IMG/VR virus record: IMGVR_UViG_3300045988_121070 | Strand: one strand, 5' to 3' | DNA length: 64,000 bases | Source of the DNA: a virus | Shown here: positions 9,401 to 54,916 of the stretch, in pieces | Layout: the number at the start of each line of letters is the position of its first letter | How positions within the stretch are numbered: the stretch's first letter is position 1 | The notes under the pieces: generated by a model | Seen by the model: the letters and a program-made list of their open reading frames with translations, nothing else | What the model was told of the DNA's origin: nothing | The model's database searches: none | Program-made: the position numbers and the translations under genes

Positions 9401-9890
9401 TTATCGATTTAGAATTAGATATTTACCTTGTATCGAGGATTGGCACAGGCGAGCGTCTGCTTCATAGCCGAAGGCGACGAGGACAGAACCGAAGAATGGG
9501 GAGCCGGTGGTGCCGTCTGGCTGAATGAACCTGATGCGGTGGCGCATGAAGATCAGCGACTTTGCCTTGGGGAAGATGACTTCCTGAAAGAGTAGGTTAT
9601 CAACCTGGTTCTTCAGTAAGGCGATACCATTGTTATGCTCTGCCAACTTCTCAACGAATGGACGCAGTAGGGAGCGGCTATATGGCGGGTTCATAAAGAC
9701 CAGTGCCGAGGAAGGCCATTCCTGAGCAAGCCCGTTTTGCTCCTTATTATACGATAGTGGCGCTATCTGATAGGGGGGGGGTAATTGGCGAACATGGGTC
9801 CAAATCAAATGGCCCCAACTCATCGATAACCCACTTTGGTGTGTACCACTCATCGGAACTTACTACGGGATTGCGCTGTGTCTTGTTCAT
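9401..9890 (-). CDS. phage Dam-family N6-adenine DNA methyltransferase, frameshifted at a 9-nt homopolymer
   Basis: MNKTQRNPVVSSDEWYTPKWVIDELGPFDLDPCSPI... in one frame and ...NGLAQEWPSSALVFMNPPYSR in the next; the frames join if the run at 9773-9781 (G9 on plus) is 8 nt. Confidence 0.75.
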
Positions 9891-9893
9891 TGC

Positions 9894-10115
9894 TTATCTT
9901 GAATTATAAAGTGTGAAAGTATCTGGAATAAAGTGGCAGAAGACCACTTGTTTTTTCTCGTCACAGCCGCCATAAAACGGGCAATCGTACTCCAACCACG
10001 AGCCGACATGAACTAAAGTCGGTCCTATTTTGCAGGTGTCACAAGTAGCCTTCATCCCATGCGGACAGGGAGTCTTACTACTTTTAGATTTCATCTTAAA
10101 CTTTATCTCCTCCAT
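9894..10115 (-). CDS. small Cys-rich protein
   Basis: 73-aa ORF. Confidence 0.45.
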   Translation of the reverse strand: MEEIKFKMKSKSSKTPCPHGMKATCDTCKIGPTLVHVGSWLEYDCPFYGGCDEKKQVVFCHFIPDTFTLYNSR

Positions 10116-10350
10116 TCTCTTTTACTTCATCAGGATTGTAGGGTTGGCCACAGAAAGGGCAATACTTCGGATAGAGGTTAATGTCCTTTGGGTTCTTCGC
10201 ACGAGAGCCATCCCTTTTGCTGGGATAGTAATAACCAGTAACGACCATACGAGCGGTGCCGTCACTCATCAGCGCATAGTTAGCAAGAGCAGAGTCATTG
10301 AATTTCTCCTTCAGTTGCTTATTCCAGTTGTTAATACAATTACATGCCAT
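10096..10350 (-). CDS. small zinc-ribbon-like protein
   Basis: 84-aa ORF with CNC...CPFC. Confidence 0.45.
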   Translation of the reverse strand: MACNCINNWNKQLKEKFNDSALANYALMSDGTARMVVTGYYYPSKRDGSRAKNPKDINLYPKYCPFCGQPYNPDEVKENGGDKV

Positions 10351-10597
10351 AATTTTTGCGTAAAAATTTGTCTAAGGATGCGAGAGAATTTTCTATTATA
10401 ATGATAACGATAGCCAATGCGCCAAAAAGACTGATGAAAGGAAGACAGGCAATCATCCAATCTCTCATATATGAAGAATGGAGGCGCTGACCATTTTTAA
10501 CCAGGCGAGAAATCTTCACAAGCTGGAATACTGATACTATAAGCATCGGTATCAAACAGCCGTAGAAGAGAATATCAAAAAACAAATCTTTCGTCAT
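10340..10597 (-). CDS. small membrane protein (2 predicted TM helices)
   Basis: two hydrophobic stretches, FFDILFYGCLIPMLIVSVFQLV and MIACLPFISLFGALAIVIIII. Confidence 0.5.
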   Translation of the reverse strand: MTKDLFFDILFYGCLIPMLIVSVFQLVKISRLVKNGQRLHSSYMRDWMIACLPFISLFGALAIVIIIIENSLASLDKFLRKNYGM

Positions 10598-11186
10598 TTT
10601 TACTTAGGAGTTTGAAGGTGTAGGCCACGACTGTAGGGTTGCTTTCCCAGGTGCCTTTGCCACAGATACTGTTGAACATGTCGGCGAATGCTTCGCGGGG
10701 GTTACAGTGGACGTAGTGGAAGATATGGACGTGGTACTTACCGTTAGCGAGACGCTTACGTTTGATGTCTATCCAGGTATAGTCGCCCTCTTCGCCCGTT
10801 TCGAGGTTCCGGCATGGAACGTCACCATGAACGATACCCTCACGCATGATGTCGGCATCAGATATATCCTGAAGGAGCTGGTTGCGCTTCTCGATGATTT
10901 CTATACGATGCTGCATCAGTTCTGGACGCACGTAGAGTTTGTTTTCCCAGCCAGGGTGACGGGTAGGGTCTTCACAATCGAGTTCACGTTTTAGGCGATT
11001 GAGGTAGGCTTGTTTCTCTACATCAGGAAGACCGCGATAGATGAAACCGTAGGCTTCGGAAATAGCCAGGACTTCGCCCACGTCATACTGGCGATCTGTA
11101 GTCAGTCGGCGTGTGTTGTCCTTCAGTCCCTCAATGATAAGTTGGGTGAGAGCCTGACGGAAACGGATAGAGCGTAACTTATTCAT
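10575..11186 (-). CDS. hypothetical protein
   Basis: 203-aa ORF. Confidence 0.5.
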   Translation of the reverse strand: MNKLRSIRFRQALTQLIIEGLKDNTRRLTTDRQYDVGEVLAISEAYGFIYRGLPDVEKQAYLNRLKRELDCEDPTRHPGWENKLYVRPELMQHRIEIIEKRNQLLQDISDADIMREGIVHGDVPCRNLETGEEGDYTWIDIKRKRLANGKYHVHIFHYVHCNPREAFADMFNSICGKGTWESNPTVVAYTFKLLSKNDERFVF

Positions 11187-11748: not shown

Positions 11749-11994
11749 TTAATTCTTTAATATGAGCCGGAGAGCGAAAAGGGCGTTACCAGCATCGCCT
11801 ACACGGACTACTTCGTTATATACTCGTTCAAGACTTCGAGGATTGACCTCTTTAAACTTGTTCATTTCAGGGACGGTCAGTTTGTGACCTGCAATCGTAG
11901 CGATTTTGAAGATCATGGCGGTGCGGCTGAGACCGTTGCCTGCAAAGGGTGATTTTGCCCCCCCCTGATGCTTGGATGTTTGAAATATATTCAT
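11749..11994 (-). CDS. hypothetical protein carrying an in-frame 8-nt homopolymer
   Basis: 81-aa ORF; C8 at 11958-11965 (sense G8-CAAAA) encodes QGGA. Confidence 0.45.
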   Translation of the reverse strand: MNIFQTSKHQGGAKSPFAGNGLSRTAMIFKIATIAGHKLTVPEMNKFKEVNPRSLERVYNEVVRVGDAGNALFALRLILKN

Positions 11995-12413: not shown

Positions 12414-13181
12414 TTAAAATAATGTTTGTTGTGATAATTCTATTTTGATATTCTTCTCAGCCATTGCGAAATACTCAGGATGAATTTCAAAGCCAATGTA
12501 ATGGCTTTTCTCCTTGATAGCTGCTATGGCTGTTGTTCCGCTACCTATGAAAGGGTCGAGAATTACCCCCCCCCGTGGCACGAAAAAATGTATGAGCGTC
12601 TGAGGTAAAAGAAGCGGGAATGCTGCCCGATGCTTACCTTTGTGGTTCTTTCCAATTCTCAACACATTGGATAGTTTACCACGTTCAGCGTTCAATAGAG
12701 GAAACTGGCGGCCTTTACAGTCGTGCTTATCGAAAGCGATGATAAATTCATACTCACAGTTGAGCACTCCTGAGTGCATGGCCGGTTCAGACGATTTCTT
12801 ATCCCAGATAAGGATATCACGGATGCGGTCAGCATAGTGGCCAAAGATTTTCATCAGAGCCACCTTATTACCTGTTATCATCATTATGTTATAGAAGACA
12901 GGTCCATTGCTGACACGTAACATTTCGTCGATACACTGACATTGCCAGTTGAAATAGTCATCCATTGACATTGCATCATTCACACGGTTGTCGTAACGAT
13001 TAGCAGGGAGGCCGGTATAACCAAACGTCTCTCCTTTCGTCCATTTGGTATATTTACCAGAATGGATGCGTAGGCCGAAGTTATAAGGCGGTGAAGTGAT
13101 AACAGCATTTACGCTGTTATCCTCCATCTGCCTCATTCCTTCGAGACAATCCATGTTGTATATGGTGTCAATGTTCATCAT
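12414..13181 (-). CDS. beta-class N4/N6 DNA methyltransferase (SPPY motif, possibly N4-cytosine)
   Basis: VITSPPYNFG (motif IV) then PRGGVILDPFIGSGTT (motif I); start trimmed to MMNIDTIYNMDC at 13181; C9 run at 12566-12574 is in frame and encodes RGGV. Confidence 0.85.
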   Translation of the reverse strand: MMNIDTIYNMDCLEGMRQMEDNSVNAVITSPPYNFGLRIHSGKYTKWTKGETFGYTGLPANRYDNRVNDAMSMDDYFNWQCQCIDEMLRVSNGPVFYNIMMITGNKVALMKIFGHYADRIRDILIWDKKSSEPAMHSGVLNCEYEFIIAFDKHDCKGRQFPLLNAERGKLSNVLRIGKNHKGKHRAAFPLLLPQTLIHFFVPRGGVILDPFIGSGTTAIAAIKEKSHYIGFEIHPEYFAMAEKNIKIELSQQTLF

Positions 13182-13182
13182 A

Positions 13183-14010: not shown

Positions 14011-14029
14011 ATTACTTTTGGTTATTAGA

Positions 14030-14085
14030 CCCCGCCGTTCTCGGCGGGGCATGGGTTATTGTTTTGTATCGGCGACAGAATCGCC
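14030..14085 (-). repeat. composite palindromic element, the only clearly inverted copy
   Basis: ccccgccg-ttct-cggcgggg (14030-14049) and ggcgacagaatcgcc (14071-14085); the latter lies inside the 3' end of the radical-SAM gene (LGDSVADTKQ). Confidence 0.7.
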
Positions 14086-14934: not shown

Positions 14935-15394
14935 TTAACTTTCGGCGGTTTGGCGAGCCTTTTCGCAGACGAAAATCAGTGCTTGTTTGAGGACACCTGT
15001 TGCTGTTTCCCACTGACGTTGCAGTGCGTTGATAGCCACTTTCTTCTCGTGTTTGAGGTCATAGATTTTCTTCTGCATATTGATGTCATTAAGTTGCATC
15101 TGATGATCGAGATTGTGCATTTCCTGACGCAGTGCTAATGCTTTTTCGCGCTCATCGGGTGTGCCACCAGAGGGCAGTTGTGACCGTTTGAGGTCGATAA
15201 GGCAGATGATGCGGTTGCGTTCTACCTGCTGTTCGGTACGGACGTTGAACACGTCATTGTCGCACTTGGTGCGGATCTGCATGATAGCTTCATCACGGTA
15301 GGTATTGACTTTACCAAACCATGCTCGTACTTCTTCCTCGGAGAGCTGTTTCAGGTCTTCCAGGGGGGGGGTAATTTACGAAATTTTGTTCCAT
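14935..15394 (-). CDS. hypothetical coiled-coil protein, frameshifted at a 9-nt homopolymer
   Basis: MEQNFVNYPP (ATG at 15394) joins LEDLKQLSEEEVRAWFGKVNTYRDEAIMQIRTK... only if the run at 15363-15371 (G9 on plus) is 8 nt. Confidence 0.55.
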
Positions 15395-26932: not shown

Positions 26933-27064
26933 ATAATGCTTATTTTGTTACAAAGATACAAAGAAGCGGCAGCGAGGACGGGACAAAGAGACTTTGGAGG
27001 GACGGTGATAAAATCGCCTTGCAATAGACGGAACAAAAAACCGCTGGCAGAACCAGCGGGAACA

Positions 27065-27307
27065 CTAAAAGAAGTATTCGATAAGGAGGACGGTTTTGGG
27101 GTAGTGAGCGAGAGAGAGGATGTCTTCAGGCAGCTGCATGGCATCGTAGCGGGTGTTTAGGGTGCAAGCGACACCTCCTGATGCTACGTTGACGGGGACT
27201 ATTTGCCCCCCCCCCCTAAACAGCCTTGGAGGTGCGGAGGTAGTTTGGGAAAGCGGGAGAGCTGTCATGCTATGACAGCATACGGAACGACTTTTCTTAT
27301 AGGTCAT
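27065..27307 (-). CDS. TRD-like cassette M12 (intact as sequenced)
   Basis: MTYKKSRSVCCHSMTALPLSQ..RGGGQIVPVNVASGGVACTLNTRYDA...LLIEYFF; C11 at 27206-27216 is in frame; hairpin element 27261-27290 embedded; paralog of M3. Confidence 0.55.
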   Translation of the reverse strand: MTYKKSRSVCCHSMTALPLSQTTSAPPRLFRGGGQIVPVNVASGGVACTLNTRYDAMQLPEDILSLAHYPKTVLLIEYFF

Positions 27308-27550
27308 ATTCAATAAATACACATTGGGATGTTTCGCCGGCCATTAGAGCAGAAGCGACACGGCCATCCTCCTTGACACGAGCACGGCGGAGTTTGGAGG
27401 TAGGGTAAGCCATATCGAAGACCCCATTGGGGAGGCATTCGATATATCCGCTTTCGGTGGCCTGGCGGACTTGGAGCACGATTTGCCCCCCCTATTGGCG
27501 ATGGTAAGGAACGGGCGACGCAGTTCATAGTGATGGACGTTAGAACTCAT
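27297..27550 (-). CDS. TRD-like cassette M11 (broken; needs an 8-nt run)
   Basis: MSSNVHHYELRRPFLTIANRGG | QIVLQVRQATESGYIECLPNG...GRVASALMAGETSQCVFIEYDL; C7 at 27486-27492. Confidence 0.5.
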
Positions 27551-27715
27551 ATTCAATCAAGACATAAGGAGTGGTGTTATACATGCCTGTATCGGAATCT
27601 TTGCCAATACCCCCCCTGAAAACGAGGTAATGGTGTTGCAGATCTGCTTCAAGTTGTAACGGAGAACCAGACCTTTCGTATCACGAATCCAGCCGATGAA
27701 GTTATAGGTTGTCAT
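27540..27715 (-). CDS. TRD-like cassette M10 (broken; needs an 8-nt run)
   Basis: MTTYNFIGWIRDTKGLVLRYNLKQICNTITSFSGG | GIGKDSDTGMYNTTPYVLIEYEF; C7 at 27610-27616. Confidence 0.5.
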
Positions 27716-27848
27716 ATTCTATCAGGAGGCAATGAGGACATTTATAATCAGTAGCACGAAGTGCCGGAGAGACCAAAAGCCATTTGCCCCCCCCTGACTT
27801 CCATTCAAAAGCGTGGGATAAAGGATGAACGCCTACCTTATAAATCAT
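27702..27848 (-). CDS. TRD-like cassette M9 (intact as sequenced, 48 aa)
   Basis: MIYKVGVHPLSHAFEWKSGGGKWLLVSPALRATDYKCPHCLLIEYDNL; C8 at 27787-27794 is in frame (translated codon by codon). Confidence 0.5.
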   Translation of the reverse strand: MIYKVGVHPLSHAFEWKSGGGKWLLVSPALRATDYKCPHCLLIEYDNL

Positions 27849-27991
27849 ATTCTATCAGGATATACCCCCCCCCCATTTGCGGCCAACACCGTTTGGACGA
27901 TGCCGGCAGTACCTTGAACATTACCATCAAAACCATTACGGAAGGTATCGTAATATAGGTTCCCAATACGAAGGATGTTGCTATAAATCAT
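27838..27991 (-). CDS. TRD-like cassette M8 (broken; needs a 9-nt run)
   Basis: MIYSNILRIGNLYYDTFRNGFDGNVQGTAGIVQTVLAANGGG | YILIEYDL; C10 at 27865-27874. Confidence 0.5.
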
Positions 27992-28282
27992 ATTCGATAA
28001 TTACATTATTGACGTGAGCGGTGATGATTGTAGCAGAGGGGTTACGAAAATAATTACAGACGAGTTCGGGCACCCCCCCATCTTAGCATCCTGACGGTAG
28101 AAACGGAGGTCGCCATTCGGGAGCCAGTGAGCAGCGATGATATCACGGCGAGAAAGACCAAGCCGAGAACGGCTGGGAGTGGTGGCGGAGGAACCAGCGG
28201 GGGAACCGCTGGACGCTGTGGAATTGGGGGCTGCGATAGTATCGCAGCATACGGGACAATCTACAATTCTCTTTCTATCCAT
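27981..28282 (-). CDS. TRD-like cassette M7 (broken; needs an 8-nt run)
   Basis: MDRKRIVD[CPVCCDTIAA..PSRSRLGL]SRRDIIAAHWLPNGDLRFYRQDAKMGG | VPELVCNYFRNPSATIITAHVNNVIIEYDL; C7 at 28073-28079; palindromic element 28158-28260 embedded in frame. Confidence 0.5.
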
Positions 28283-28556
28283 ACGAGGTTATCTTTTTGC
28301 ACGGAGGTGATGGTGTTTGTGACTTGGGCGGAACCGAGTTCGATAACTTGGTGAAAGTTGCGGTCAGCATGAGCACCACGGAATGAGAGGCAGTCGAGGT
28401 CACGATTAACCTGCGAACATATACGGACAGAAGCGGCACGGCTGTCTGGGTCTCGGTCGTAGAGGTAGGTCATGGTTTGCCCCCCCTACCTCGGCTTGCT
28501 GAGATACGGACTTTGGCCATGTCTGCGGACGGTTCAGTATCTTTAATCAAGAGCAT
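28261..28556 (-). CDS. TRD-like cassette M6 (broken; needs an 8-nt run)
   Basis: MLLIKDTEPSADMAKVRISASRGRGG | QTMTYLYDRDPDS...GSAQVTNTITSVQKDNLVWIEREL; C7 at 28480-28486; paralog of M5. Confidence 0.5.
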
Positions 28557-28722
28557 ATTCTACTAATAAGAGGTTATCTTTCTGAATGCCAGTGATAGTG
28601 TTAGAGCAGCCATCGGTTGCAGGGAGCAAAAAACGGTCGGAGAAACGGCAATGCCCCCCCCTATCTCCGTAGATACGGCGCACGGCTTTTGCGTGAGCGG
28701 TGCGGACAGCACGGAGGATAGA
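28543..28722 (-). CDS. TRD-like cassette M5 (in frame but with no start codon of its own)
   Basis: ...ILRAVRTAHAKAVRRIYGDRGGHCRFSDRFLLPATDGCSNTITGIQKDNLLLVEYALD; C8 at 28654-28661 is in frame; separated from the core ORF by two hairpin elements (28725-28779) and a frame change. Confidence 0.4.
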   Translation of the reverse strand, partial: SILRAVRTAHAKAVRRIYGDRGGHCRFSDRFLLPATDGCSNTITGIQKDNLLLVEYALD

Positions 28723-28783
28723 AGCCCCACCGAAAACGGCGGGGAGTGACGGCTTAGACCCGCTGGGAGAACCAGCGGGCACA

Positions 28784-30465
28784 CTAACCTTTGGCACGGA
28801 TGGCTGCGATTTCTTCATCAGAGAGTTTGTGATCGGTGACGGTGTAGTAAATCTTAGCGGCAGCATCCGTCTCGTTTTTGGAGAGGAACTTTATCACGCT
28901 GTCCGGCTTCAGGAAGAACTTTTCACTAACCTCCTCTTCGAGAATGTCAGCGATGCAGGTGGTGAGTTCAAAGGGACGCGGGAACTCATACTGCGTATCG
29001 CCGAGGATATCCTGACGGATGGAGATCATATAGACCCGTTCGCGGTTCTGAGCTACGCCATAGTGTTTGCTGTTCAGAATGCCAAACTTCGTTTTCTTCT
29101 CACGTTTCTCTTTGCCCCAGGGGTAAGGGAATGACGGTGCGAGGAAGTTGACATAGCCATGTTTCTCCAGTAGGGCGCACCATTCTTTGAAGTCGGGCAT
29201 GTTGACGCTGTTAATGAGGGCAGAGACATTTTCCTGAAGGAGGATTTTCGGGCGCATCTGTTCAACAGCCTTTTCGGTGTACCAAAGGACTGCAGAGCGG
29301 GTGTCAGAGCCTTTTTTGATGCCCGCACGTTTTCCCGCCTGACTGATGGACTGACAGGGCGTGGAGTAAGTCAAGAAATCGATGTCAGCATCCGAGAGGT
29401 CGCTCCAGTCACATTTGGTCATGTCGCCCCTATTGAGGGAGGCATACTGCGGGAAGAGCAAGTTATGAGCAACCACGGCAGGCTGTTCATTGATTGGCCT
29501 TTTGCTTTCGGGGTCGAACTCAGCCCATGCCACGAGTTCATAGGCGAAATCAGGATAACGCTCACGGAGCATGTCAAAGGCTATGCACTGGGAGTCATAG
29601 CCAGAGCAAAGCGTAACCACCTTCAGAGGCTGTTCGCAGAAATTGCGAGACATCTGGAAAGTGGGTAGCGCAAACATATCCTGCACTTCACCAGGTATGC
29701 GGCGGTCGGTGGGGAATAAAAAAGCCTCGTAGATATACATGAGGACATCGCAGACGATTGAATTGCCAGCGAGCTTGTAGTGGTTGGAGTTGGAGATTAT
29801 CTGCACGGGGCCAAAACGCTCTTCGGTTTTGGCGGCCTTGATTTTTTCGTAAGCAAGGGTGTAGTTCTGACGGAGGAGTTCTATTTCCTCGGCATCATCA
29901 TCCTCTTCATCCCCAGCGACGGAATCACTGGGCACAGTATCTGGAGCATCTGCAGGTGCTTCGTTTTCTTCATCTGAGGGAGGTGTTTCGAGGCTTTCCA
30001 AAGAATCGCGGAAGGCTTCTTCTACTTCTTTCATTGTTGCCGAGGGTTCCAAACCGAACACGCTTAACTCATTATCGACATCAACGAAAGCGGTGTATGA
30101 CTTTTGTTCAGTAGCCATCAACTGAGAAATCTGGCGTTCAGGAACGCCCATTAGCCTATAGCATTCGGGGGGGGGTAAGTTTTCGGATGTCGAAGTACCT
30201 CACGGGGTGCTTCGGATCCTTTTTGCCCTGGAGGTCAGGGTGGTTGTCGGGATAAATTTTTGCAATCATACGCTCTTTATGTTTAATATCAAATCTTTCT
30301 TCACAAACAAAATAATGATTACGGGCAGAGATACCCGCCAGAATCGTTACAGCGATGCCATGATGCGACCGCTGATTATAGGTGTCGAGCATTTCGCCGT
30401 GAAAGTTCGGTCGCCATTGCCCCCCCCCTAATCATGGCATTCAGCCGAGAATTAAAATGGTTCAT
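28784..30465 (-). CDS. circularly permuted DNA (cytosine-5) methyltransferase with order TRD(M4)-IX-acidic linker-X-I..VIII; broken by two 1-nt frameshifts
   Basis: MNHFNSRLNAMIRGG | QW..SHHGIAVTILAG..VRYFDIRKLTPP | ECYRLMG (IX), HYKLAGNSIV (X), VTLCSGYDS (I), AEFD (II), YSTPCQSISQAG (IV), LLQENV (VI), QNRERV (VIII). The runs C9 at 30420-30428 and G9 (plus) at 30167-30175 must each be 8 nt for a single ~559-aa product. The intact ORF 28784..30151 alone lacks the TRD and the first half of motif IX. Confidence 0.8.
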
Positions 30466-30650
30466 AAGTCATATTCTATTAAAACGACAGTCATTGGGAA
30501 GTGTGCAAGCGTCAGGATATTCGTAGGTCCGACAGCATCGTAACGAGTGGTAAGGGTAGCAGCGCAGCCGTCGGCTGTGACATTGACAGGAGCGATTTGC
30601 CCCCCCCTGGTAGTGCGGAATGCACCGATGTTTGTTATCTTACAGATCAT
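30462..30650 (-). CDS. TRD-like cassette M3 (intact as sequenced)
   Basis: MICKITNIGAFRTTRGGQIAPVNVTADGCAATLTTRYDAVGPTNILTLAHFPMTVVLIEYDL; C8 at 30600-30607 is in frame. Confidence 0.55.
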   Translation of the reverse strand: MICKITNIGAFRTTRGGQIAPVNVTADGCAATLTTRYDAVGPTNILTLAHFPMTVVLIEYDL

Positions 30651-30849
30651 ATTCAATCAATACGCCAGTGGCACCACGAGTGGTTTTTAGAAGAAAATTA
30701 GCGACACTACTTTTCTGATACTGAGCTTTGATGGTTCGACATACCCCCCCCTGATAAGCGTTAATAAGCCCCAGCCGAGAACGGCTGGGAGTGGTGTTTT
30801 TTTGAGCTGCGATGGTATCGCAGCATACGGGACACTTTTCATAGGTCAT
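30640..30849 (-). CDS. TRD-like cassette M2 (intact as sequenced)
   Basis: MTYEK[CPVCCDTIAAQKNTTPSRSRLGL]INAYQGGVCRTIKAQYQKSSVANFLLKTTRGATGVLIEYDL; C8 at 30744-30751 is in frame; palindromic element 30770-30834 embedded. Confidence 0.55.
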   Translation of the reverse strand: MTYEKCPVCCDTIAAQKNTTPSRSRLGLINAYQGGVCRTIKAQYQKSSVANFLLKTTRGATGVLIEYDL

Positions 30850-30987
30850 ACTCGATGAGAATTTTGGGTTTGTCTGTATCGTGGCCATTGCCCCCCCTGC
30901 GAGACAGAGGGCGATACCTTTTGGGGACACCACTATGCCGTTTTGGGAAGGGCTATAACGACCGAGGATGATAGGACGTGTGACCAT
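30839..30987 (-). CDS. TRD-like cassette M1 (the run length decides between a separate cassette and an M1-M2 fusion)
   Basis: MVTRPIILGRYSPSQNGIVVSPKGIALCLAGG...; with the C7 at 30891-30897 as sequenced it reads through into the M2 frame (115-aa ORF 30640..30987); with 8 nt it ends GGGNGHDTDKPKILIEYDL + TGA. Confidence 0.5.
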
Positions 30988-30988
30988 A

Positions 30989-31177
30989 TTACAAGAGTAG
31001 GATGATGACGATAATCAACAGCACGGCAAAGGTGCGAGAACGACGGGGGCGGATGTCGCCACGGATGTAGGACTTTGTGGAGATCCTGGTGGGTGACGGG
31101 AGTGGACGCTTGATGTCGTAGGGATCGATGCGTTCGAGTCGTCGGGGGTCGTGGTTCTTTTTCTTCTGATGCTTCAT
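30989..31177 (-). CDS. small basic protein with a C-terminal hydrophobic tail
   Basis: 62-aa ORF, ...RSRTFAVLLIIVIILLL. Confidence 0.35.
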   Translation of the reverse strand: MKHQKKKNHDPRRLERIDPYDIKRPLPSPTRISTKSYIRGDIRPRRSRTFAVLLIIVIILLL

Positions 31178-31590
31178 TCGTGATTGGACTGGGTGGCGGA
31201 CCAGCGGAGGTTAGAGAAATGATTATTGGTGCGGTTGCCATCGATGTGGATGACGTGGGGAAGGTTGTCGGGGTTAGGGACAAAGGCTTCTGCCACGAGG
31301 CGATGCACCTTAAAGTTCTTACCAGCGAGACGGACACGGCGATAGCCTTTGCCGTTGAAAGATGCTATCTCCTTGCAGAGAGCGCCAGGACTCGATGGAG
31401 AACCATCGAGCACGTTGGCTGTAGGAGCTGATAGGACACGGCCATCTTTCGCAATGAAATAGGATGTGCGGCCATGCTGGAAGAAGCAGGCCACCTCTAT
31501 ACGGTGAGTAACACCAGGACAGTTGGTGACACAGCCCTCATCAGCAACAAGTGACTTTGCGATAAAATCACAGTTATACATCTTATCCAT
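31174..31590 (-). CDS. HNH homing-endonuclease-like protein
   Basis: HRLVAEAFVPNPDNLPHVIHIDGNRTNNHFSNLRW (HNH_3-type); its ATG overlaps the dUTPase stop (TAATG). Confidence 0.75.
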   Translation of the reverse strand: MDKMYNCDFIAKSLVADEGCVTNCPGVTHRIEVACFFQHGRTSYFIAKDGRVLSAPTANVLDGSPSSPGALCKEIASFNGKGYRRVRLAGKNFKVHRLVAEAFVPNPDNLPHVIHIDGNRTNNHFSNLRWSATQSNHE

Positions 31591-32024
31591 TACTTTGTGC
31601 CGGTATGTCCGTAACCGCCATCGCCACGTTCGGTATCGTCGAGGACTGTCACGGGGTTCCACTCTGCCTGTTCGTAGGATGCGATAACCAGTTGGGCAAT
31701 GCGTTCGCCGTCGGCAATCTCGAAGGGGATGTTGCTTAGATTGATGAGCAGCACACCGATTTCACCACGATAGTCGGCATCGATCGTGCCTGGTGCGTTG
31801 AGCACGGTGATACCATGTTTGAGAGCGAGGCCGGAGCGTGGGCGCACCTGAGCCTCGTAGCCTGCAGGGAGTGCGATATACAGGCCGGTGGGGACTAACA
31901 CACGCTCCATGGGTTGCAGGACGATAGGCTCTGTGATGTTCGCACGAAGATCCATGCCGGCAGACTGAGCTGTGGCATATTCGGGAAGTGGGTGGTGGGA
32001 GTTGTTGATGATATCTATTTTCAT
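31590..32024 (-). CDS. dut: dUTP diphosphatase
   Basis: [36 protein letters not shown] and a GGYGHTG tail: the five canonical dUTPase motifs; start trimmed to MKIDIINN. Confidence 0.92.
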
Positions 32025-32070
32025 AATTTTTGCGGTTAGGACCCAACGGGGAAACCGCTGGGCACAGTGG

Positions 32071-45190: not shown

Positions 45191-45325
45191 ATGAATAAGA
45201 CTATTGAGAACCAGATTATCTCTCTGCATAAAGAGGGCTGGAAAGTAGAGAACATCGCGAGCCTTGCCAAGGTGAAGCCGGCGAGAGTGAAAGCCATTCT
45301 TAGAGAGAAAAACCTGTTGATGTGA
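45191..45325 (+). CDS. small HTH-like protein, 44 aa
   Basis: MNKTIENQIISLHKEGWKVENIASLAKVKPARVKAILREKNLLM. Confidence 0.4.
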   Translation: MNKTIENQIISLHKEGWKVENIASLAKVKPARVKAILREKNLLM

Positions 45326-45923
45326 TGAGCGAGAATAAAGACTGGGTAGGTGGCAGAGCTTCGGTGTTCAAGACATTGGGGGCGAGTAACCACACGGACC
45401 ATGAACGTGCGTGGGGTGACTATTATGCCACCGAACCCAAAGCGACGGAATGGCTGCTGAAGTTGGAGCAGTTTGACGGTCCCATTCTGGAACCGGCATG
45501 TGGCGAGGGACATATCTCGAAAGTGCTGATTAGGGGGGGCAAAACGTCACTTCGCGAGACATCATCGACAGAGGCTATGGCGAGGTGGCCGACTTCCTGG
45601 CCATCGACAACCAGGAATGGAACGGGAACATCGTCACCAATCCGCCATACGCCTATGCTCAGGAGTTTGTGGAGAAGGCGCTGCAGATTATCCCAGACGG
45701 GAAAAAGGTGTGTATGTTTTTGAAGCTAACCTTTTTGGAGGGGAAGCAGAGAAAGCACCTTTTCAGGACCCAGCCACCTGCAAGGGTATGGGTGAGTTCG
45801 TCGAGACTGCTATGTGCCATGAATGGTGAGTTTGATAAGATCAGCGGGAGCGCTACGGCCTATGCCTGGTTTGTGTGGGTAAAGGGCTATAAGGGCGAGA
45901 CGGTGATTAAGTGGTTTAACTGA
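45325..45923 (+). CDS. N6-adenine DNA methyltransferase (motif I then NPPY), frameshifted at a G7 run
   Basis: EPACGEGHISKVLIRGG | QNVTSRDIIDRGYGEVADFLAIDNQEWNGNIVTNPPYAYAQEF; the frames join if the G7 at 45533-45539 is G8. Confidence 0.8.
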
Positions 45924-46215: not shown

Positions 46216-46398
46216 ATGAATAATAACGAGACGAGGATGCAGCGACTGGTGAGATTAACGACAATGGCAGGGAAACTCTATATGAGGGACCTGGTGGAGG
46301 TTTCGACGGTGAGCAACATCCATCTGAACAGATACCGGCAGCTGGCAACGGCAGCACGGGAGGAATGGAACAAGAATAAGAGAAGGAAGGCATGTTAG
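46216..46398 (+). CDS. small hypothetical protein
   Basis: 60-aa ORF overlapping the next start. Confidence 0.4.
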   Translation: MNNNETRMQRLVRLTTMAGKLYMRDLVEVSTVSNIHLNRYRQLATAAREEWNKNKRRKAC

Positions 46399-47201
46399 AA
46401 GTGAACCATATCTATGAGGGTGACTGCCTGGAACTGATGGCAGAAATAGCGGATGAGAGCGTGGATGCTATCATCTGCGATTTGCCTTACCAGGTGCTGC
46501 ATAAGGATAACCCGAATGCGCAATGGGACAGAATGATACCGTTTGAGCCTCTTTGGGCGCACTATGAGCGTATCATTAAGCCGAGGGGTGTGATTGTGCT
46601 CTTCGGGCAGGGAATGTTTACCAGCGACCTGATGCAGAGCAACAGGAAGTTGTGGAGATATAACCTGATATGGTACAAAGGACGCGGAACGGGGTTCCTG
46701 AATGCGAATAGGATGCCGATGCGCTGCCATGAGGACATCTGTGTATTCTATAAGCACCTGCCAGTGTATAACCCTCAGATGGGCATTGGTGAGCCGAACC
46801 ACTCGCAAGGGCGATGTGAGCAGCCGAGGAAGAACAGCTGCTATGGGAAGTTCAAGACGGGCAGGACGTATGACTATGATAAGCAGATCAGGAAGGTAGC
46901 CCCTACCCGACCGAACGAGAAATTTCCCCAGTCGATTATCTACATTCAGAAGGAGCACGAGACGACGGTGTATCATCCAACACAGAAGCCCGTGGATCTG
47001 CTTCGCTATCTGATTAGGACTTATACCAATTCGGGGGGGGTAATTTTAGACAATACGATGGGCAGCGGTACGACATGTGTTGCTGCCATCATGGAGAAAC
47101 GGAGGTACATAGGGATAGAGAAAGACCCGAAGTATTTTGCCGTGGCCGAGAAGAGAATAAAAGAAGCGGGGCGGTGGATGACGCTGGACTTCGAGGAATA
47201 A
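46392..47201 (+). CDS. beta-class N6-adenine DNA methyltransferase (DLPY)
   Basis: AIICDLPYQV (motif IV), HPTQKPVDLL, NSGGVILDNTMGSGTT (motif I); G8 at 47033-47040 is in frame and encodes SGGV. Confidence 0.85.
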   Translation: MLEVNHIYEGDCLELMAEIADESVDAIICDLPYQVLHKDNPNAQWDRMIPFEPLWAHYERIIKPRGVIVLFGQGMFTSDLMQSNRKLWRYNLIWYKGRGTGFLNANRMPMRCHEDICVFYKHLPVYNPQMGIGEPNHSQGRCEQPRKNSCYGKFKTGRTYDYDKQIRKVAPTRPNEKFPQSIIYIQKEHETTVYHPTQKPVDLLRYLIRTYTNSGGVILDNTMGSGTTCVAAIMEKRRYIGIEKDPKYFAVAEKRIKEAGRWMTLDFEE

Positions 47202-52896: not shown

Positions 52897-52916
52897 ATTC
52901 TTATATCATTATAATT

Positions 52917-53060
52917 ATGGCTTTTTGCAAAAAACGTGGTGTGGAAATAAGCGGTCCGAACTGCATGGGATGTTACCAATGTAATGAAGAAAAATCAGAA
53001 ACTCTTAGAAACTTATATGCAAGTTGTATAAGAATAATGAACGAACCTGATAAACAATGA
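52917..53060 (+). CDS. small Cys-rich peptide, 47 aa
   Basis: MAFCKKRGVEISGPNCMGCYQCNEEKSETLRNLYASCIRIMNEPDKQ; ATGA overlap with the next ORF. Confidence 0.35.
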   Translation: MAFCKKRGVEISGPNCMGCYQCNEEKSETLRNLYASCIRIMNEPDKQ

Positions 53061-53284
53061 AAACAATACATGAAATGGCTGTAGAGTATGGGGAAAAACA
53101 CCAAGGCACCTGCAATATCGAGGATTTCGAGGCAGGAGCTTTGGCTGTGGTCCTTATTTTCTTCAAGATAGATCAAGAGTCTTTCGATGACAACGCTCTG
53201 TCTTGTGCCGTAGAAAATGCTATAGGAGATTTAACAATAGATTATTCGTATGAAGAACTTAAAGCCAGGAATGCTGACGTATGA
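53057..53284 (+). CDS. hypothetical protein
   Basis: 75-aa acidic ORF. Confidence 0.4.
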   Translation: MKTIHEMAVEYGEKHQGTCNIEDFEAGALAVVLIFFKIDQESFDDNALSCAVENAIGDLTIDYSYEELKARNADV

Positions 53285-53867
53285 TTTAGCAGACGTGCCG
53301 GCATTTGATACGACGAAGGTGTATCTAATTAAGCCGTCGATAGACCACCCTATTGTGCCTGGGCAGCCGGTGCCGATGTCGAACGTAATAGAGCTGCATA
53401 ACGTCAAGGTGACTCCTTCTGTCTTTATAGAGCCAGAAATGGTAGCGCCGAAAGTGGAGGTGCCAAAGGAGCCTTTTAGCATAAGCGTGAATGTGAAGCA
53501 CTACTTCAGTAAAGCGGATAAGAAGAGGATTAAGAGAATGTTCTTTAAAAAGGTGCGATTGCCGAGGAAGTTGAAGAAGGCGTATAGAAAGATGACTATC
53601 CGCGACATGGATCCACATGTGGAACTGGGAGGTGAAAAGAATGGTAACGACGTGAAAATTACCATGAGCAGTTATCTGGGCATGAAGCATGGCTATAAGC
53701 GCACGAAGTGGGTTAATAAGGCTTTCTGCCACTTTAAAAAGATGCACAAGGCATGGGAGGAGCGCACAACGAAGCAGATGCAGGAGTACATGAAGCAGCA
53801 GGCAGTGGAAATGGTTGTGACGAAAGAGCAACAGGTGCGGCTGGCGGACATGCTAAGGAAGAAATGA
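53250..53867 (+). CDS. hypothetical basic protein (start uncertain, alternative ATG at 53271)
   Basis: 205-aa Lys/Arg-rich ORF. Confidence 0.45.
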   Translation: MKNLKPGMLTYDLADVPAFDTTKVYLIKPSIDHPIVPGQPVPMSNVIELHNVKVTPSVFIEPEMVAPKVEVPKEPFSISVNVKHYFSKADKKRIKRMFFKKVRLPRKLKKAYRKMTIRDMDPHVELGGEKNGNDVKITMSSYLGMKHGYKRTKWVNKAFCHFKKMHKAWEERTTKQMQEYMKQQAVEMVVTKEQQVRLADMLRKK

Positions 53868-53914
53868 GGACGGCGATAAAATCGCCTGACAATAAACGAA
53901 ACAAAAATTGAGAC

Positions 53915-54916
53915 ATGCTGATAGGACTGGTGGACGTGGACGGACACGCCAAGAAAAAGAAATGGGGTGCAACGATATACCCCAACCTCGCACTCGCTAA
54001 GATAGCGAGGTACTGGAGAAATAGGGGGGGGCAAATTGAATGGGCCACTCCCATGAAGCATTACGACATCATATACATGTCAAAGGTGTTTAACTTTTCG
54101 CCTGACGATACCTATATATATAATGCCGACGAGATAGTGAAAGGCGGGACGGGCTATGACCCTACGAGCCAGTTGCCGGAGGAGATAGACCGTCTGCAGC
54201 CGGACTACTCGATATACCCCAACGTGCCGAAAGATACTGCCTACGGATTTCTGACGAGAGGATGCCCGAACAGGTGTAAGTGGTGTGTGGTGCCCAGAAA
54301 AGAGGGTGCCATACGTCCGTATATGGATGTAGATGAGATAGCCATTGAGGGCAGGCGAAAGTTGGTGCTGATGGATAACAACATCTTAGCGGCAGGCGAC
54401 TACTGCATGGAGCAGTTGGAGAAGATCATTGAGAGAGGGTATAGGGTGGACTTTAACCAGGCTCTCGATGCGCGACTGGTGACTGACGAGGTGGCACAGC
54501 TGCTGGCGAGGGTGAAATGGCTTGATAACAACCGCATCCGCTTTGGGTGTGACACGCACGGACAGATAGCGGAGTGTGAGCGGGCTATGGCGCTCATCAA
54601 CAAGTATGGCTTCACGGGGCAGTATTTCCTTTATACGATGCTGACGGATGACTTCAGGGAGTGTTACGAGCGGATAGTGTATTGGTGGCACAGAACGCAA
54701 GAGACGCGGGCCAATCATCATGGGAGGTACGTCTATCCCCATGCACAGCCCTACCGTGACCCGATGAATCCCAACCACCACATACCACAATGGCAAAAGG
54801 ACATGGCGGGATGGGTAAATAAGAAGGCGCACTTTGTGGCGCACTCGTTTGAGGACTTTGAGCCGAGGAAAGGGTTTAGGTGTAAGCAGTACCTGAGAGA
54901 GGCAGGGATAATATAG
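53915..54916 (+). CDS. radical SAM protein with an N-terminal extension, carrying an in-frame G8 run
   Basis: FLTRGCPNRCKWCVVPRKEG (CxxxCxxC); G8 at 54024-54031 encodes RGGQ. Confidence 0.7.
   Translation: MLIGLVDVDGHAKKKKWGATIYPNLALAKIARYWRNRGGQIEWATPMKHYDIIYMSKVFNFSPDDTYIYNADEIVKGGTGYDPTSQLPEEIDRLQPDYSIYPNVPKDTAYGFLTRGCPNRCKWCVVPRKEGAIRPYMDVDEIAIEGRRKLVLMDNNILAAGDYCMEQLEKIIERGYRVDFNQALDARLVTDEVAQLLARVKWLDNNRIRFGCDTHGQIAECERAMALINKYGFTGQYFLYTMLTDDFRECYERIVYWWHRTQETRANHHGRYVYPHAQPYRDPMNPNHHIPQWQKDMAGWVNKKAHFVAHSFEDFEPRKGFRCKQYLREAGII

Follow-up and report, generated by a model that had tools for sequence, protein, structure and literature searches.

Why does a phage carry long runs of G or C inside its DNA methylase genes, and why do so many of these runs leave their genes out of frame by a single base? 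The question is raised by an uncultivated rumen phage with a genome of roughly 100 kb, from which one stretch of 64,000 nucleotides was analysed here (the window). Our preferred answer, to which we give a probability of about three in four, is that the runs are hypermutable contingency loci, that TRD proteins act in trans on a shared methylase core, and that the phage hedges its bets against restriction in this way.

The 21 G/C runs of 7 nt or more that a preliminary description had reported were all recovered in the window, with exactly the same coordinates and lengths. Its count of eight runs of at least 9 nt was also correct, but its "about 14" of at least 8 nt proved to be 15. G and C run counts at lengths 2-5 (5080, 880, 181 and 29) fall about 5.5-fold per added base, and by extrapolation the window should hold about 1.2 runs of 7 nt or more. 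Order-1 and order-3 Markov simulations gave about four runs of at least 7 nt, about 12 of exactly 6 nt and about one of at least 8 nt, the last against 15 present, and the excess over chance described before is thus confirmed. The length distribution is bimodal: a single run of 6 nt is followed by 6, 7 and 6 runs of 7, 8 and 9 nt, with one run each of 10 and 11 nt. As had been claimed, 11 of the 20 genic runs are off frame by one base (those starting at 9773, 15363, 45533, 27486, 27610, 27865, 28073, 28480, 30167, 30420 and 30891); the others (11958, 12566, 47033, 54024, 27206, 27787, 28654, 30600 and 30744) are in frame.

Five genes, each with a G/C run, are predicted to encode DNA methylases from Pfam and PHROG matches and motifs, in line with the earlier reading. 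No sixth emerged when every open frame of 80 aa or more was scanned for motifs and about 40 ORFs were scanned for family matches. Outside the C5-methylase array, the genes with tracts are the following:

9401-9890 (-), Dam-like methylase (PF05869 / phrog_111), split by its tract, C9 on the coding strand (9773..9781); OFF in the window, ON at C8
11749-11994 (-), 81-aa gene with a G8 tract (11958..11965) at codons 10-12; ON
12414-13358 (-), SPPY beta-class methylase with a G9 tract (12566..12574); ON
14935-15394 (-), 152-aa coiled-coil gene with a C9 tract (15363..15371) at codons 8-10; OFF, ON at C8 or C11
45325-45923 (+), NPPY methylase with a G7 tract (45533..45539, IRGGQN) just past motif I (EPACGEG); OFF, ON at G8
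46392-47201 (+), DLPY beta-class methylase with a G8 tract (47033..47040); ON
53915-54916 (+), radical SAM gene (phrog_9298, E 5e-98) with a G8 tract (54024..54031, RGGQI) at codon 37; ON

Restoring the frame restores a family match in the two OFF methylases: at C8 the Dam-like product matches phrog_111 DNA methyltransferases over residues 1-151 (E 7e-39), and at G8 the NPPY product matches phrog_799 over residues 3-199 (E 1e-62). The run encodes the GG of motif I in both beta-class methylases, SPPY (RGGVILDPFIGSGTT) and DLPY (SGGVILDNTMGSGTT), as first noticed in the preliminary description. Its statement that the 15363 run needs 8 nt holds with the gene starting at an ATG that precedes the run by 7 codons (MEQNFVNYPP-LEDL...). 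An open frame further upstream, considered as the start of the same gene, is spurious.

The remaining tracts lie in what had been called a C5-MTase array. This array is a circularly permuted core amid free-standing TRD mini-genes, an arrangement the preliminary description had missed. The core gene reads, in order, a fused TRD (U4), a 28-aa stub (MIAKIYP...VRYFD), motif IX (IRKLTPPECYRLMG), an acidic linker, motif X (GNSIVCDVL), motifs I-VIII and a stop. About 12 TRD mini-genes flank it, and each has a start codon, a stop codon and a poly-G switch to itself. Every cassette has a conserved IEY(D/E)-stop junction that contains the start codon of the next mini-gene, and all cassettes are direct repeats. 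The features are:

31174..31662 (-), HNH_3 homing-endonuclease-like gene (PF13392) adjoining the array, its position kept in relatives
30839..30987 (-), TRD mini-gene U1, tract 30891-30897 (G7); OFF, needs 8
30640..30849 (-), TRD mini-gene U2, tract 30744-30751 (G8); ON
30462..30650 (-), TRD mini-gene U3, 62 aa, tract 30600-30607 (G8); ON
28784..30465 (-), predicted C5-cytosine methylase (Pfam/PHROG matches), permuted IX-X-I...VIII, its frame interrupted at two points, by G9 at 30420-30428 and, within motif IX, by C9 at 30167-30175, each of which needs 8
28760-28787, hairpin copy without a T run, directly after the core stop codon (family D15)
28543..28818 (-), TRD mini-gene D1, its start overlapping the 3' end of the core gene, tract 28654-28661 (G8); ON
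28261..28520 (-), TRD mini-gene D2, tract 28480-28486 (G7; 7, 8 or 9 in relatives); OFF, needs 8
27981..28282 (-), TRD mini-gene D3, tract 28073-28079 (G7; 7, 8 or 9 in relatives); OFF, needs 8
27838..27991 (-), TRD mini-gene D4, tract 27865-27874 (G10; 7, 8 or 9 in relatives); OFF, needs 9
27702..27848 (-), TRD mini-gene D5, tract 27787-27794 (G8); ON
27540..27715 (-), TRD mini-gene D6, tract 27610-27616 (G7); OFF, needs 8
27297..27550 (-), TRD mini-gene D7, tract 27486-27492 (G7); OFF, needs 8
27065..27307 (-), TRD mini-gene D8, a U3 paralogue, tract 27206-27216 (G11; G9 or G8 in relatives); ON
27041..27059 (-), intrinsic-terminator-like hairpin with a T6 tail, closing the cassette array

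Related phages from independent samples have runs in matching positions whose lengths range over 6-11 nt, and the phase-variation reading proposed earlier is supported as far as sequence can test it; this variation is established between genomes and assemblies, contigs having been compared rather than single populations. Tract lengths among orthologues are 7, 8, 9 and 10 for SPPY; 7, 8, 9, 9, 11 and 7 for NPPY; 7, 8 and 9 for DLPY (about 20 contigs); 8, 10 and 7 for the 81-aa gene; 8, 8, 9, 10, 7, 8 and 11 for the coiled-coil gene; and 8, 9 and 9 for the radical SAM gene. The Dam-like tract is C8 in L008, and the core C tract measures 7, 8 or 9 nt in 14 genomes. The frame of the C5 gene reads through in the homologues P0001, P0002, P0004 and P0005. 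Ninety-five observations of array tracts in 14 genomes comprise one of 6 nt, 41 of 7, 38 of 8, 13 of 9 and one each of 10 and 11. Since tract length varies between phages, the set of readable methylation activities is not the same from one related phage to another. Array tracts are ON in 37 of the 95 cases, near the one-third expected without selection on state, which fits fast switching and fits weak function too. Indels concentrate in the tracts: nine of ten gapped blocks in 3.1 kb from four strains lie inside them (the tenth is a T run), as do all three internal indels in about 4.8 kb between L103 and L104, whose core proteins are identical.

Homopolymers are classic error sites, and the frame-breaking lengths might be sequencing or assembly miscalls in a true genome with all genes intact. 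The window's tracts at 27206 (11) and 27865 (10) stand at the far end of what was observed, and many related contigs end near arrays. We nevertheless judge this very improbable, because separate sequencing runs of identical strains agree at every tract: L002 and L004, from separate runs, are 100% identical over 11.7 kb and agree at all 10 tracts, and L001 and L003, from two assembly pipelines, match over 14.8 kb with all 13 tracts in agreement. Between-strain length differences are consistent over many projects and assemblers. Three features speak of biology rather than error: tract placement is conserved within one functional class, tracts have taken the place of canonical codons, and lengths have a lower bound of 7. 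The long ORFs elsewhere (1938, 1215 and 545 aa) are intact, as had been stated.

That 11 of 20 genic tracts are off frame in the window, and that 4 of 14 genomes have an OFF core, would also suit decaying pseudogenes that the phage no longer needs. We find this scarcely credible. Substitution patterns indicate that purifying selection acts on the window's OFF genes both before and after the run, in the frames joined at the ON length, with a strong synonymous bias either side of every tested tract: S22/N9 before and S80/N33 after it in the Dam-like gene, S40/N5 and S80/N29 in the NPPY gene, and S20/N1 after the tract of the 81-aa gene. The D1-D8 cassettes give S64/N21 (codon positions 12/10/68), with S12/N0 in the ON frame for D1 and D7 each, and ten cassettes (U2, U3 and D1-D8) give S86/N89 in the ON frame against S17-19/N152-157 in wrong-frame controls. 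Strain alignments revealed no further indels or stop codons in these genes, and the same genes are in frame among close relatives.

Comparison with distant homologues indicates that the tracts are derived and recurrent, replacing canonical codons (GGC GAC). Distant beta-class methylases have G-D/E (GGCGAC) where the window's clade has GGGGGGG-GTA, and the SPPY position reads GGCGAC or GGCGAT in distant homologues. Distant radical SAM homologues have QGDEV in place of RGGQI and lack the tract, which is interrupted (GGGGAGGG, GGGGTGAG or GGGGTGGG) in four other orthologues. L006 and L014 have TCGCCGCCC and no tract in the Dam-like gene. The C tract of the core lies at RKLTPPECY in the window, but in the L073 lineage it lies at LMGVPPPQIE.

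Transcriptional slippage can occur on runs of 8-11 identical bases. It is conceivable that RNA polymerase or ribosomes slip on them in a programmed manner, such that the genes are always partly expressed and DNA variation is incidental; the array ON frequency near one-third looks as if the DNA state were weakly selected. However, the programmed slippage sites known to us keep one length and one out-of-frame layout, whereas length here varies from 6 to 11. Many relatives have in-frame lengths and the tracts come in several sizes, which makes obligatory programmed slippage quite unlikely. In the stand-alone methylases the commonest allele is the one in frame (G8 in 8 of 17 genomes for DLPY and ON in 8 of 12 for SPPY, one count per genome; ON in 10 of 14 for the core). 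Some lineages lock the tract by interruption (GGGGAGGG or GGGTGGG); DNA length must therefore matter.

The array design recurs where core identity is just 59-70% (L073, L075, L093, L094 and L103). In L094 and L103 the core ORF begins MIA(Q/K)..., 16-28 aa before motif IX and directly behind the stop of the last cassette. This stop, of a U2-like cassette, lies 12 nt ahead of the core start codon in L094, and a D6-type cassette lies immediately upstream of the TRD-less core in L103. Fifty-three of the best 120 core homologues start at exactly the MIA stub, and such cores lack recognition loops of their own. The U3 family counts 85 database homologues of 44-86 aa, mostly 62-63 aa; all 85 are free-standing, and none is found inside a larger protein. 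The U1 ON peptide together with motif IX gives a gapless, collinear alignment (E 0.003) to M.HhaI residues 237-287, the stretch of its recognition loops and motif IX. Pfam recognized none of the TRD cassettes, and U1 was the only one with a PDB sequence match; an AlphaFold model of one fused homologue (mean pLDDT 56.6) was too poor for use. From these sequence comparisons, TRD subunits acting in trans are the likely mechanism, although we know of no direct precedent for a 50-100-aa TRD that lacks motif IX and works in trans. The window's lineage could strictly do without action in trans, since U4 is fused to the core there. A distant relative from a cultured Muribaculaceae genome (L099) has an ancestral-looking form, a canonical-order multispecific enzyme with about six TRDs fused in tandem, broken by G12, G11 and C8 tracts.

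The U4 fusion also bears on the idea that the cassettes are a silent store (pilS / vls-like), copied or recombined into a single fused site upstream of motif IX. Strains differ in cassette content at the U2, U3 and U4 positions, the conserved junction repeats and hairpin modules could be recombination sites, and an HNH endonuclease gene always adjoins the array. Still, this is unlikely. Silent cassettes would need no start codon, stop codon or maintained frame switch. The U3 family holds its exact 62-aa ORF down to 56% identity, and both cassette halves are under purifying selection in the ON-joined frame. The stub-started cores offer no fused expression site, and simple recombination between direct repeats deletes cassettes rather than swaps them.

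Returning to contingency loci with TRDs in trans, we hypothesize that replication slippage adds or removes one G:C pair and shifts the frame, giving a heritable, reversible ON/OFF switch. The lineage would have installed tracts in every DNA methylase gene, one radical SAM gene and two small genes, and would have maintained them at a minimum of 7 nt. Circular permutation would give the core its own reading frame, free of interruption by recognition modules. Each TRD mini-protein may dock non-covalently between the core C terminus (the first half of the small domain) and the N terminus (motif IX). Each docked TRD would lend the shared core one specificity, specificities would switch independently, and in the window's lineage the C tract in motif IX would be the master switch for the core. 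If true, this amounts to a combinatorial, phase-variable methylome built from TRD subunits acting in trans. With tracts in every methylase gene, a population would hold genomes with different sets of active modification enzymes. Methylation guards against classical restriction-modification and exposes DNA to methylation-dependent (Type IV) restriction. Bet-hedging is the most probable benefit, the right combination of methylation presumably differing from host to host.

Experimental precedent for the restriction bet-hedging logic comes from agt of phage T2, a poly-A contingency locus that switches between restriction by TgvAB and restriction by McrA/BC (bioRxiv 10.1101/2025.10.21.683753). Poly-G tracts of 7-11 nt are also present in the receptor-binding genes of Fletchervirus.

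The flanks of the runs are more alike than the preliminary description had it. Among 68 distinct contexts compared, TA or CA directly follows the run in 59, reading the G strand. The contingency-locus account does not explain this strong Y-A consensus. The intergenic G9 at 33295-33303 is replaced by GGGGAGGGG in L001-L003, which rules it out as a conserved tract; it abuts or belongs to the stem of a hairpin, CCCCGCCG-AGAA-CGGCGGGG.

The window, with a G+C content of 50.4%, contains 21 G or C runs of 7–11 nt, all of them lying exactly where the preliminary description had placed them. Counts of G and C runs fall from 5080, 880, 181 and 29 at lengths of 2 to 5 to a single run of 6 nt, and stand at 6, 7, 6, 1 and 1 for lengths of 7 to 11. 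Because the counts bottom at length 6 and climb again at 7–9, the G/C runs are a sequence class apart and not the tail of the ordinary composition. Extrapolation of the decay gives ~1.2 runs of at least 7 nt and order-1 and order-3 Markov simulations give ~4, so that, as in contingency loci, homopolymers, 20 of the 21 within genes, are longer than chance (21 versus ~1–4 expected); the same simulations give ~12 runs of exactly 6 nt against the one present. No second peak is present in the length distributions of A and T runs of the window. As to strand, 17 of the 20 genic tracts carry G on the coding strand, and tracts follow gene orientation rather than GC skew, which is positive in 31 of 32 2-kb bins despite gene-orientation flips at ~39.3 kb and 55 kb.

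Family searches with Pfam and PHROG confirmed that five DNA methylases are encoded here and that each carries at least one run, the families matched being N6_N4_Mtase (beta class), Dam PF05869, phrog_799 and PF00145. A motif scan of all open frames of at least 80 aa, together with family scans of ~40 ORFs, found no sixth methylase. The five methylases (three of them named after a motif) and the other genes with a run are as follows:

9401–9890, minus strand: Dam-like methylase (PF05869, phrog_111)
11749–11994: 81-aa gene of unknown function, run 7–10 codons past the start
12414–13358, minus strand: beta-class SPPY methylase (PF01555)
14935–15394: 152-aa coiled-coil gene of unknown function, run 7–10 codons past the start
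28784–30465, minus strand: C5 methylase (PF00145)
45325–45923, plus strand: NPPY methylase (phrog_799)
46392–47201, plus strand: beta-class DLPY methylase (PF01555)
53915–54916: radical SAM gene (phrog_9298)

Frame states were assigned by setting each run to n−1, n and n+1 bases and taking as ON the frame that matches the gene family or the orthologues, any other length being OFF. By this measure, 11 of the 20 genic runs are one base off frame in the window, the same figure as in the preliminary description, and the ON length recovers full family matches of the tract-bearing ORFs. For the coiled-coil gene, whose tract at 15363 had been said to need 8 nt, orthologue alignment agrees: it puts the start 7 codons upstream and makes 8 or 11 the ON length. 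The run does encode the motif I GG in both beta-class methylases (GGVILD...GSGTT), and the recurrence of RGGQ is real as well, being found in the mutually unrelated NPPY methylase, radical SAM protein and five cassettes of the array around the C5 methylase. The intergenic G9 at 33295 was considered as a contingency locus and ruled out, since the run is not conserved in relatives. No structural gene in the window, which is part of the genome only, has a tract, the 1938-aa tape-measure gene included, and none of the window's ORFs places a tract in a receptor-binding or tail-fibre gene in the Fletchervirus manner. No res, hsdR or hsdS genes were found among the ~40 scanned ORFs, so the Type III or Type I context of a phasevarion is not seen there.

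No near relative was retrieved among GenBank phages by megablast of two 16–20-kb window pieces, and tblastn of the C5 core and of the 1215-aa primase-helicase against GenBank phages gave best identities of only 41% and 21%. The C5 core has 1027 homologues in metagenomes, carried by contigs of ~80–127 kb, and both near-identical and more distant loci were retrieved from them for comparison. The prediction that relatives would conserve run positions with varying lengths was borne out in this comparison of consensus sequences from different samples: every tract position is kept and lengths differ, i.e., length is polymorphic at conserved positions with conserved flanks, as in contingency loci. 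Among 95 array observations (13 tracts in 14 genomes), lengths of 7, 8 and 9 nt occur 41, 38 and 13 times, 10 and 11 once each, and a lone 6 is the only tract shorter than 7. Outside the array, the window and its orthologues have 8, 8, 10 and 7 nt at tract 11958 (81-aa gene), 9, 8, 8, 9, 10, 7, 8 and 11 at tract 15363, and 7, 8, 7, 9, 9, 11 and 7 at tract 45533 (NPPY methylase); tract 47033 (DLPY methylase) measures 7–9 nt in ~20 contigs. Exact-pattern scans for further tract alleles gave 3 viral and 7 metagenome matches.

Indels are confined to these positions almost completely. In a four-strain alignment (3.1-kb core plus downstream array), all of them fall in tracts except one in a T run, and between the related loci L103 and L104, with identical core proteins and 98% identical DNA, 3 of 3 internal indels are in G tracts. 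Assembly error, as a source of the frame-breaking lengths, is contradicted by their reproducibility: contigs L002 and L004, from separate sequencing runs, are 100% identical over 11.7 kb with all ten tracts included, and L001 and L003, from two pipelines, agree over 14.8 kb, whereas random miscalling would not reproduce in this way. The biological pattern of the tracts also speaks against error. Many related contigs (L087–L092 and L086) are only 1.7–4.9 kb long and end at or near cassette arrays, as would be expected if heterogeneity of the population within the arrays interrupts assembly.

Substitutions among strains, scored in the frame set by the ON length, bear on whether genes in the OFF state are decaying into pseudogenes. 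In the eight cassettes downstream of the C5 core (D1–D8), 64 synonymous changes stand against 21 non-synonymous, and 68 of 90 substitutions are at the third codon position. Over ten scored cassettes (D1–D8 plus the upstream U2 and U3), the ON frame gives 86 synonymous versus 89 non-synonymous changes, and the two wrong frames, used as a control, give 17–19 versus ~155. Two methylases that are OFF in the window behave alike on both tract sides: synonymous to non-synonymous counts are 40/5 and 80/29 for NPPY and 22/9 and 80/33 for Dam-like. The length toggles an intact ORF that, read in the ON frame, is under purifying selection before and after the tract, and this pattern of substitutions contradicts decay into pseudogenes.

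Homologues at a greater distance are without the tracts and have ordinary codons in their place. Distant beta-class methylases have GGC GAC/GAT (G-D) where the window clade has GGG GGG GTA (G-G-V), and distant radical SAM homologues have CAG GGT GAT GAA GTG (QGDEV) versus the clade's AGG GGG GGG CAA ATT (RGGQI). In some lineages the tract is interrupted, as GGGGAGGG, GGGGTGAG or GGGTGGG, and such an interruption locks it. The C tract of the C5 core lies within RKLTPPECY in the window lineage and within LMGVPPPQIE in the lineage of the related locus L073, and therefore arose twice. Frame-specific selection, codon replacement, locked tracts, repeated origin and the 7-nt floor together indicate that mutability itself is probably under selection. 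Obligatory programmed slippage, by which transcription or translation would decode tracts of any length, is contradicted by the varying lengths, the frequent in-frame alleles and the locked tracts, and some transcriptional slippage may act on top of the DNA variation.

Flanks were surveyed for all window tracts and six related loci (L073, L075, L040, L010, L025 and L060). Whichever strand codes, the G strand has T or C and then A directly after the run in 59 of 68 distinct contexts; position +2 after the run is A in 88% and A precedes the run in 57%. Since the reading frame of the run varies between genes, this G(n)-Y-A flank looks like a DNA-level rule. G(n)T motifs are reported to raise T-to-G mutation more than 1000-fold (PMC12344412).

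The core of the C5 methylase carries motifs I, IV, VI, VIII, IX and X (PF00145, E 6e-40), which in that order read TLCSGYDSQ, STPCQSISQAG, QENV, QNRERVYM, IRKLTPPECYRLMG and GNSIVCDVL. The 455-aa minus-strand ORF called by gene finders contains motifs I–VIII with motif X in its N-terminal part, and motif IX is found just upstream of that ORF, across the C9 tract at 30167–30175. In read-through homologues the order is target-recognition domain (TRD), 28-aa stub, IX, acidic linker, X, I–VIII and stop. With IX and X N-terminal to I–VIII, the core is by its motif order a circularly permuted enzyme of the M.BssHII kind. Among the best 120 of the 1027 core homologues, 120 of 120 cover the query, in which X precedes I–VIII, and 13 of 13 read fully keep the order.

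The same best 120 homologues differ in where they begin: 53 start at the stub, another 46 carry a TRD fused at the N terminus, and the remaining 21 begin past motif IX. In the window lineage, the TRD unit U4 is fused to the core when both tracts are ON. In loci L094 and L103, the core ORF starts with MIAQ or MIAK, 16–28 residues ahead of motif IX and 12–14 nt past the last cassette stop. Many cores start at the stub and are therefore without recognition loops of their own. AlphaFold2, applied to a fused homologue (P0005) with a 40-sequence alignment, gave a mean pLDDT of 56.6, with the TRD below 50.

Around this core lies an array of short units: U1–U3 upstream, U4 fused to the core and D1–D8 downstream, closed by a terminator at 27041–27059. 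Each unit ends in (L/V)IEY(D/E) with a stop within two codons. In the junction DNA (ATTGAATATGAYCTNTAA), the ATG of the next unit is in the +1 frame and TGA stops are in the third frame, and for each unit exactly one tract-length class yields an ORF from its own ATG to the next junction stop. In the window, U2, U3, D1, D5 and D8 are ON, seven units are OFF, and the core C tract is also OFF. The same design recurs where the core is only 59–70% identical (L073, L075, L093, L094 and L103). Each cassette having its own stop, the array does not encode tandem TRDs in one chain between VIII and IX as multispecific enzymes do, and there is no combination of tract lengths at which one frame runs unbroken across it.

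The units are, as far as can be predicted, target-recognition domains. The ON form of U1 joined to motif IX aligns without gaps to M.HhaI residues 237–287 (E 0.003), i.e., to two recognition loops followed by motif IX, and the GGG of the U1 tract falls on the YGGG of loop 2. Units other than U1 have a T(L/I)T... signature. Pfam matched no family to the ON-state cassette peptides, and a PDB sequence search with a chimera of U3 and motif IX found nothing, only the U1 chimera matching M.HhaI. A database search with U3 (62 aa) retrieved 85 homologues, down to 56% identity, all stand-alone and of 44–86 aa, mostly 62–63; in 0 of 85 is it a domain of a larger protein. This small protein is well conserved, the alignment consensus of the family being M..RGG..PVNVT..CAATLTTRYDAxGPTNILTLAHYPMTVVLxEYE.

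Several other ways of reading the array were considered. A single ORF made by read-through, +1 frameshifting or translational bypass was rejected: the junctions have no slippery motif in common, each junction leaves only one of the three frames open, and to cross it in that frame the TRD ahead of it would have to be translated out of frame. DNA inversion or a shufflon was rejected as well, all cassettes being in direct orientation and no invertase being seen among the scanned ORFs. For an intron or intein at the IEYD junction no supporting feature was found on inspection of the sequence.

G+C-rich hairpins of three kinds are repeated at the 5′ ends of certain cassettes and immediately past the core stop: CCCGCTGG-TTCTC-CCAGCGGG, CCCAGCCG-TTCT-CGGCTGGG and GCTGCGAT-ANN-ATCGCAGC, translated as PAGSPSG, PSRSRLG and CPVCCDTIAA. 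They lie at 28760–28787, 27041–27068, 28721–28751, 28154–28184, 30766–30796, 28230–28248, 30806–30824 and 27259–27288, and in some relatives (homologous protein P0015) the third is in frame between the fused TRD and the core. These hairpins could be attenuators, processing sites or recombination sites. An HNH_3 homing-endonuclease-like gene (31174–31662, minus strand) adjoins the array in all relatives examined, including those with 70%-identical cores.

We hypothesize that replication slippage would shift tract length at a high rate, so that each burst would consist of mixed genotypes. Such a mixture could be useful, since methylation blocks classical restriction and attracts methylation-dependent restriction. 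Each TRD mini-protein would dock between the C-terminal small-domain half of the core (...ADILEEEVSEKFFLKPDSVIKFL...) and the N-terminal motif IX, and would thereby supply one specificity. A frameshift in one TRD of a fused multi-TRD chain would destroy motifs IX–X; permutation of the core and detachment of the TRDs would be what permits independent switches. The predicted layout of free-standing TRD ORFs and TRD-less cores is compatible with a split C5 methylase, and C5 methylases split near the TRD do complement as fragments, as in M.AquI and engineered splits (PMC5944983). To the fullest reading of the C5 locus we give a probability of about one half: a permuted, TRD-less core would be programmed in trans by ~12 poly-G-gated free-standing TRD mini-proteins of 50–100 aa, with the core C tract as a master switch in some lineages, allowing up to ~2^12 combinations of 5mC target sets per genome by slippage alone, and permutation and detachment would have evolved to give each specificity a frame switch of its own with the catalytic chain left whole. 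Alternatively, the cassettes could be a silent store used by gene conversion; the replacement of cassettes observed between strains fits such a store, but a store does not account for each cassette having a start, a stop and a switch, for a 62-aa family of constant length or for the TRD-less cores.

A possible forerunner of the TRD-in-trans arrangement is found in L099, a cultured Muribaculaceae genome, where a distant homologue of canonical order has, like the multispecific enzymes of Bacillus phages, ~six TRDs in tandem in one chain before IX–X and is cut into three ORFs by G12, G11 and C8 tracts. The lengths of these tracts vary among Paramuribaculum, Lepagella, Bacteroides and other genomes, and window cassettes and L099 TRDs share sequence motifs by eye; the L099 form looks like the ancestral state. 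Chromosomal contigs L097–L101 (Lepagella muris, Paramuribaculum intestinale DSM 100749, Muribaculaceae Isolate-036 and MAGs assigned to Porphyromonadaceae and Bacteroides) carry canonical-order multispecific C5 methylases interrupted by 3–4 G/C tracts of 7–12 nt, of which positions match and lengths differ in L098–L100, L101 having the first two in common. In mobile elements of Bacteroidales, phase variation through repeats may therefore be more frequent than the inversion-centred literature searched would lead one to expect.

Phasevarions are best known from Type III modA, modH and similar genes of Haemophilus, Neisseria and Helicobacter, and poly-G methylases from Campylobacter and Helicobacter. 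The likeness to the window is a simple-sequence repeat in a methylase ORF whose length switches the gene and so varies the methylome. Phasevarions, however, are cellular and of Type III mod or Type I, whereas the genes described here are phage-borne, orphan and Type II-like (beta-class N6/N4, Dam-like PF05869 and C5), with no restriction partner found among the scanned ORFs; the presumed benefit is evasion of host restriction rather than control of a cellular regulon, and a single genome places several methylases together with a dozen specificity modules under switches. In the Campylobacter phages of the genus Fletchervirus, hypermutable coding-region G tracts of the same 7–11 nt range lie in receptor-binding protein genes, generate subpopulations and alter host range at adsorption (Sorensen et al. 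2021, Cell Rep 35:109214). The window's targets are instead DNA-modification genes, and the host phylum differs (probably Bacteroidota here). Contingency loci were described in T2 and T4, especially agt, where homopolymer toggling trades TgvAB sensitivity against McrA/BC sensitivity, and for Bordetella phage BPP-1 the same authors note a poly-G tract within a methylase gene (Gomez, Barrick and Waters 2025, bioRxiv 10.1101/2025.10.21.683753). T2 agt shares with the window a homopolymer in a phage DNA-modification gene and the same bet-hedging logic. The T2/T4 loci, on the other hand, are single, ordinary-looking poly-A runs of at least 6 nt, agt being a glucosyltransferase gene, in contrast to a dedicated, bimodal G/C tract class kept at 7 nt or more, present in all methylases and joined to a modular TRD array.

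The multispecific C5-methyltransferases of Bacillus phages (SPR, phi3T, rho11s and SPbeta) combine one core with several TRDs, each for one target. They resemble the window system in having several TRDs per core, a phage or mobile-element setting and, on the window's side presumably, broad anti-restriction protection, but hold all TRDs in one polypeptide between VIII and IX, unlike stop-separated mini-genes with switches of their own and a permuted core. Permuted C5 methylases (M.BssHII, M.Alw26I, M2.Eco31I, M.Esp3I and M2.BsaI) likewise have IX–X ahead of I–VIII, with the new N terminus placed in the variable region. In split or heterodimeric C5 methylases (M.AquI and M.EcoHK31I), polypeptides made separately and divided near the TRD come together as an active enzyme (PMC5944983), as core and TRDs would here. 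The known permuted enzymes nevertheless keep the TRD in the chain, and the known split ones are two fixed halves with the TRD in the half that has IX–X. Type I hsdS shufflons or epigenetic invertons, e.g., SpnD39III, also switch specificity stochastically by exchanging the recognition module on a constant catalytic subunit; they act by site-specific inversion between half-genes, with one specificity at a time (PMC7672463). Here, the changes would come from homopolymer slippage, the modules are co-oriented, and several could be ON together.

Methylase phase variation in bacteria, Fletchervirus poly-G tracts and T-even contingency loci, including one in a DNA-modification gene, are thus already known. 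The limited literature searched gave no description of an exchangeable set of TRD-only subunits, of a phage with every methylase under such a switch, or of free-standing TRD genes, each with its own switch, arrayed about a permuted core. Phage contingency loci were recognized only lately, in Campylobacter phages in 2021 and in T-even phages in 2025, and in the present lineage, abundant in rumen and gut metagenomes, the slippage switch is applied systematically, to every DNA methylase. This implies that phage methylomes in natural communities would vary from virion to virion, which bears on host-range prediction and on phage–host linking by methylation; the findings also bear on "frameshifted" genes in viral assemblies, usually thrown out as errors. 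If the trans-TRD model is true, this would be the first C5 methylase found in nature whose recognition subunits can be exchanged, a new enzyme architecture that could be a ready scaffold for programming cytosine methylation and would amount to a new way of reaching multispecificity.

Most relatives come from cow-rumen projects (PRJEB21624 and RUG bins). We infer a Prevotellaceae host because two full-length contigs were binned with Prevotellaceae and because the window has a BT4734-like primase domain and its relatives have HU-HIG and DUF3127 domains, which fit such a host. A 289-aa protein with a Tad2-like (anti-Thoeris) domain is encoded at 13183–14052 (minus strand), with the SPPY methylase on one side and a radical SAM gene on the other, and the 9–16 kb stretch, with its tract-bearing genes and these Tad2-like and radical SAM neighbours, looks like an anti-defence region. 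Three radical SAM genes are present (14056–14886, 51811–52683 and 53915–54916, only the last with a tract), as well as a ThyX-like gene (15454–16386) and a dUTPase gene (31590–32123); together they suggest that nucleotides or DNA are modified in further ways. At 18976–20477 (minus strand), just downstream of the tape-measure gene, the phage encodes an acyl carrier protein (PP-binding) and a ketoacyl synthase, which phages do not usually carry. Finally, a 577-aa protein with an N-terminal HicA-toxin domain (43438–45171, plus strand) and a ParA-type partition ATPase (58111–58974, minus strand) hint at a plasmid-like or carrier state.
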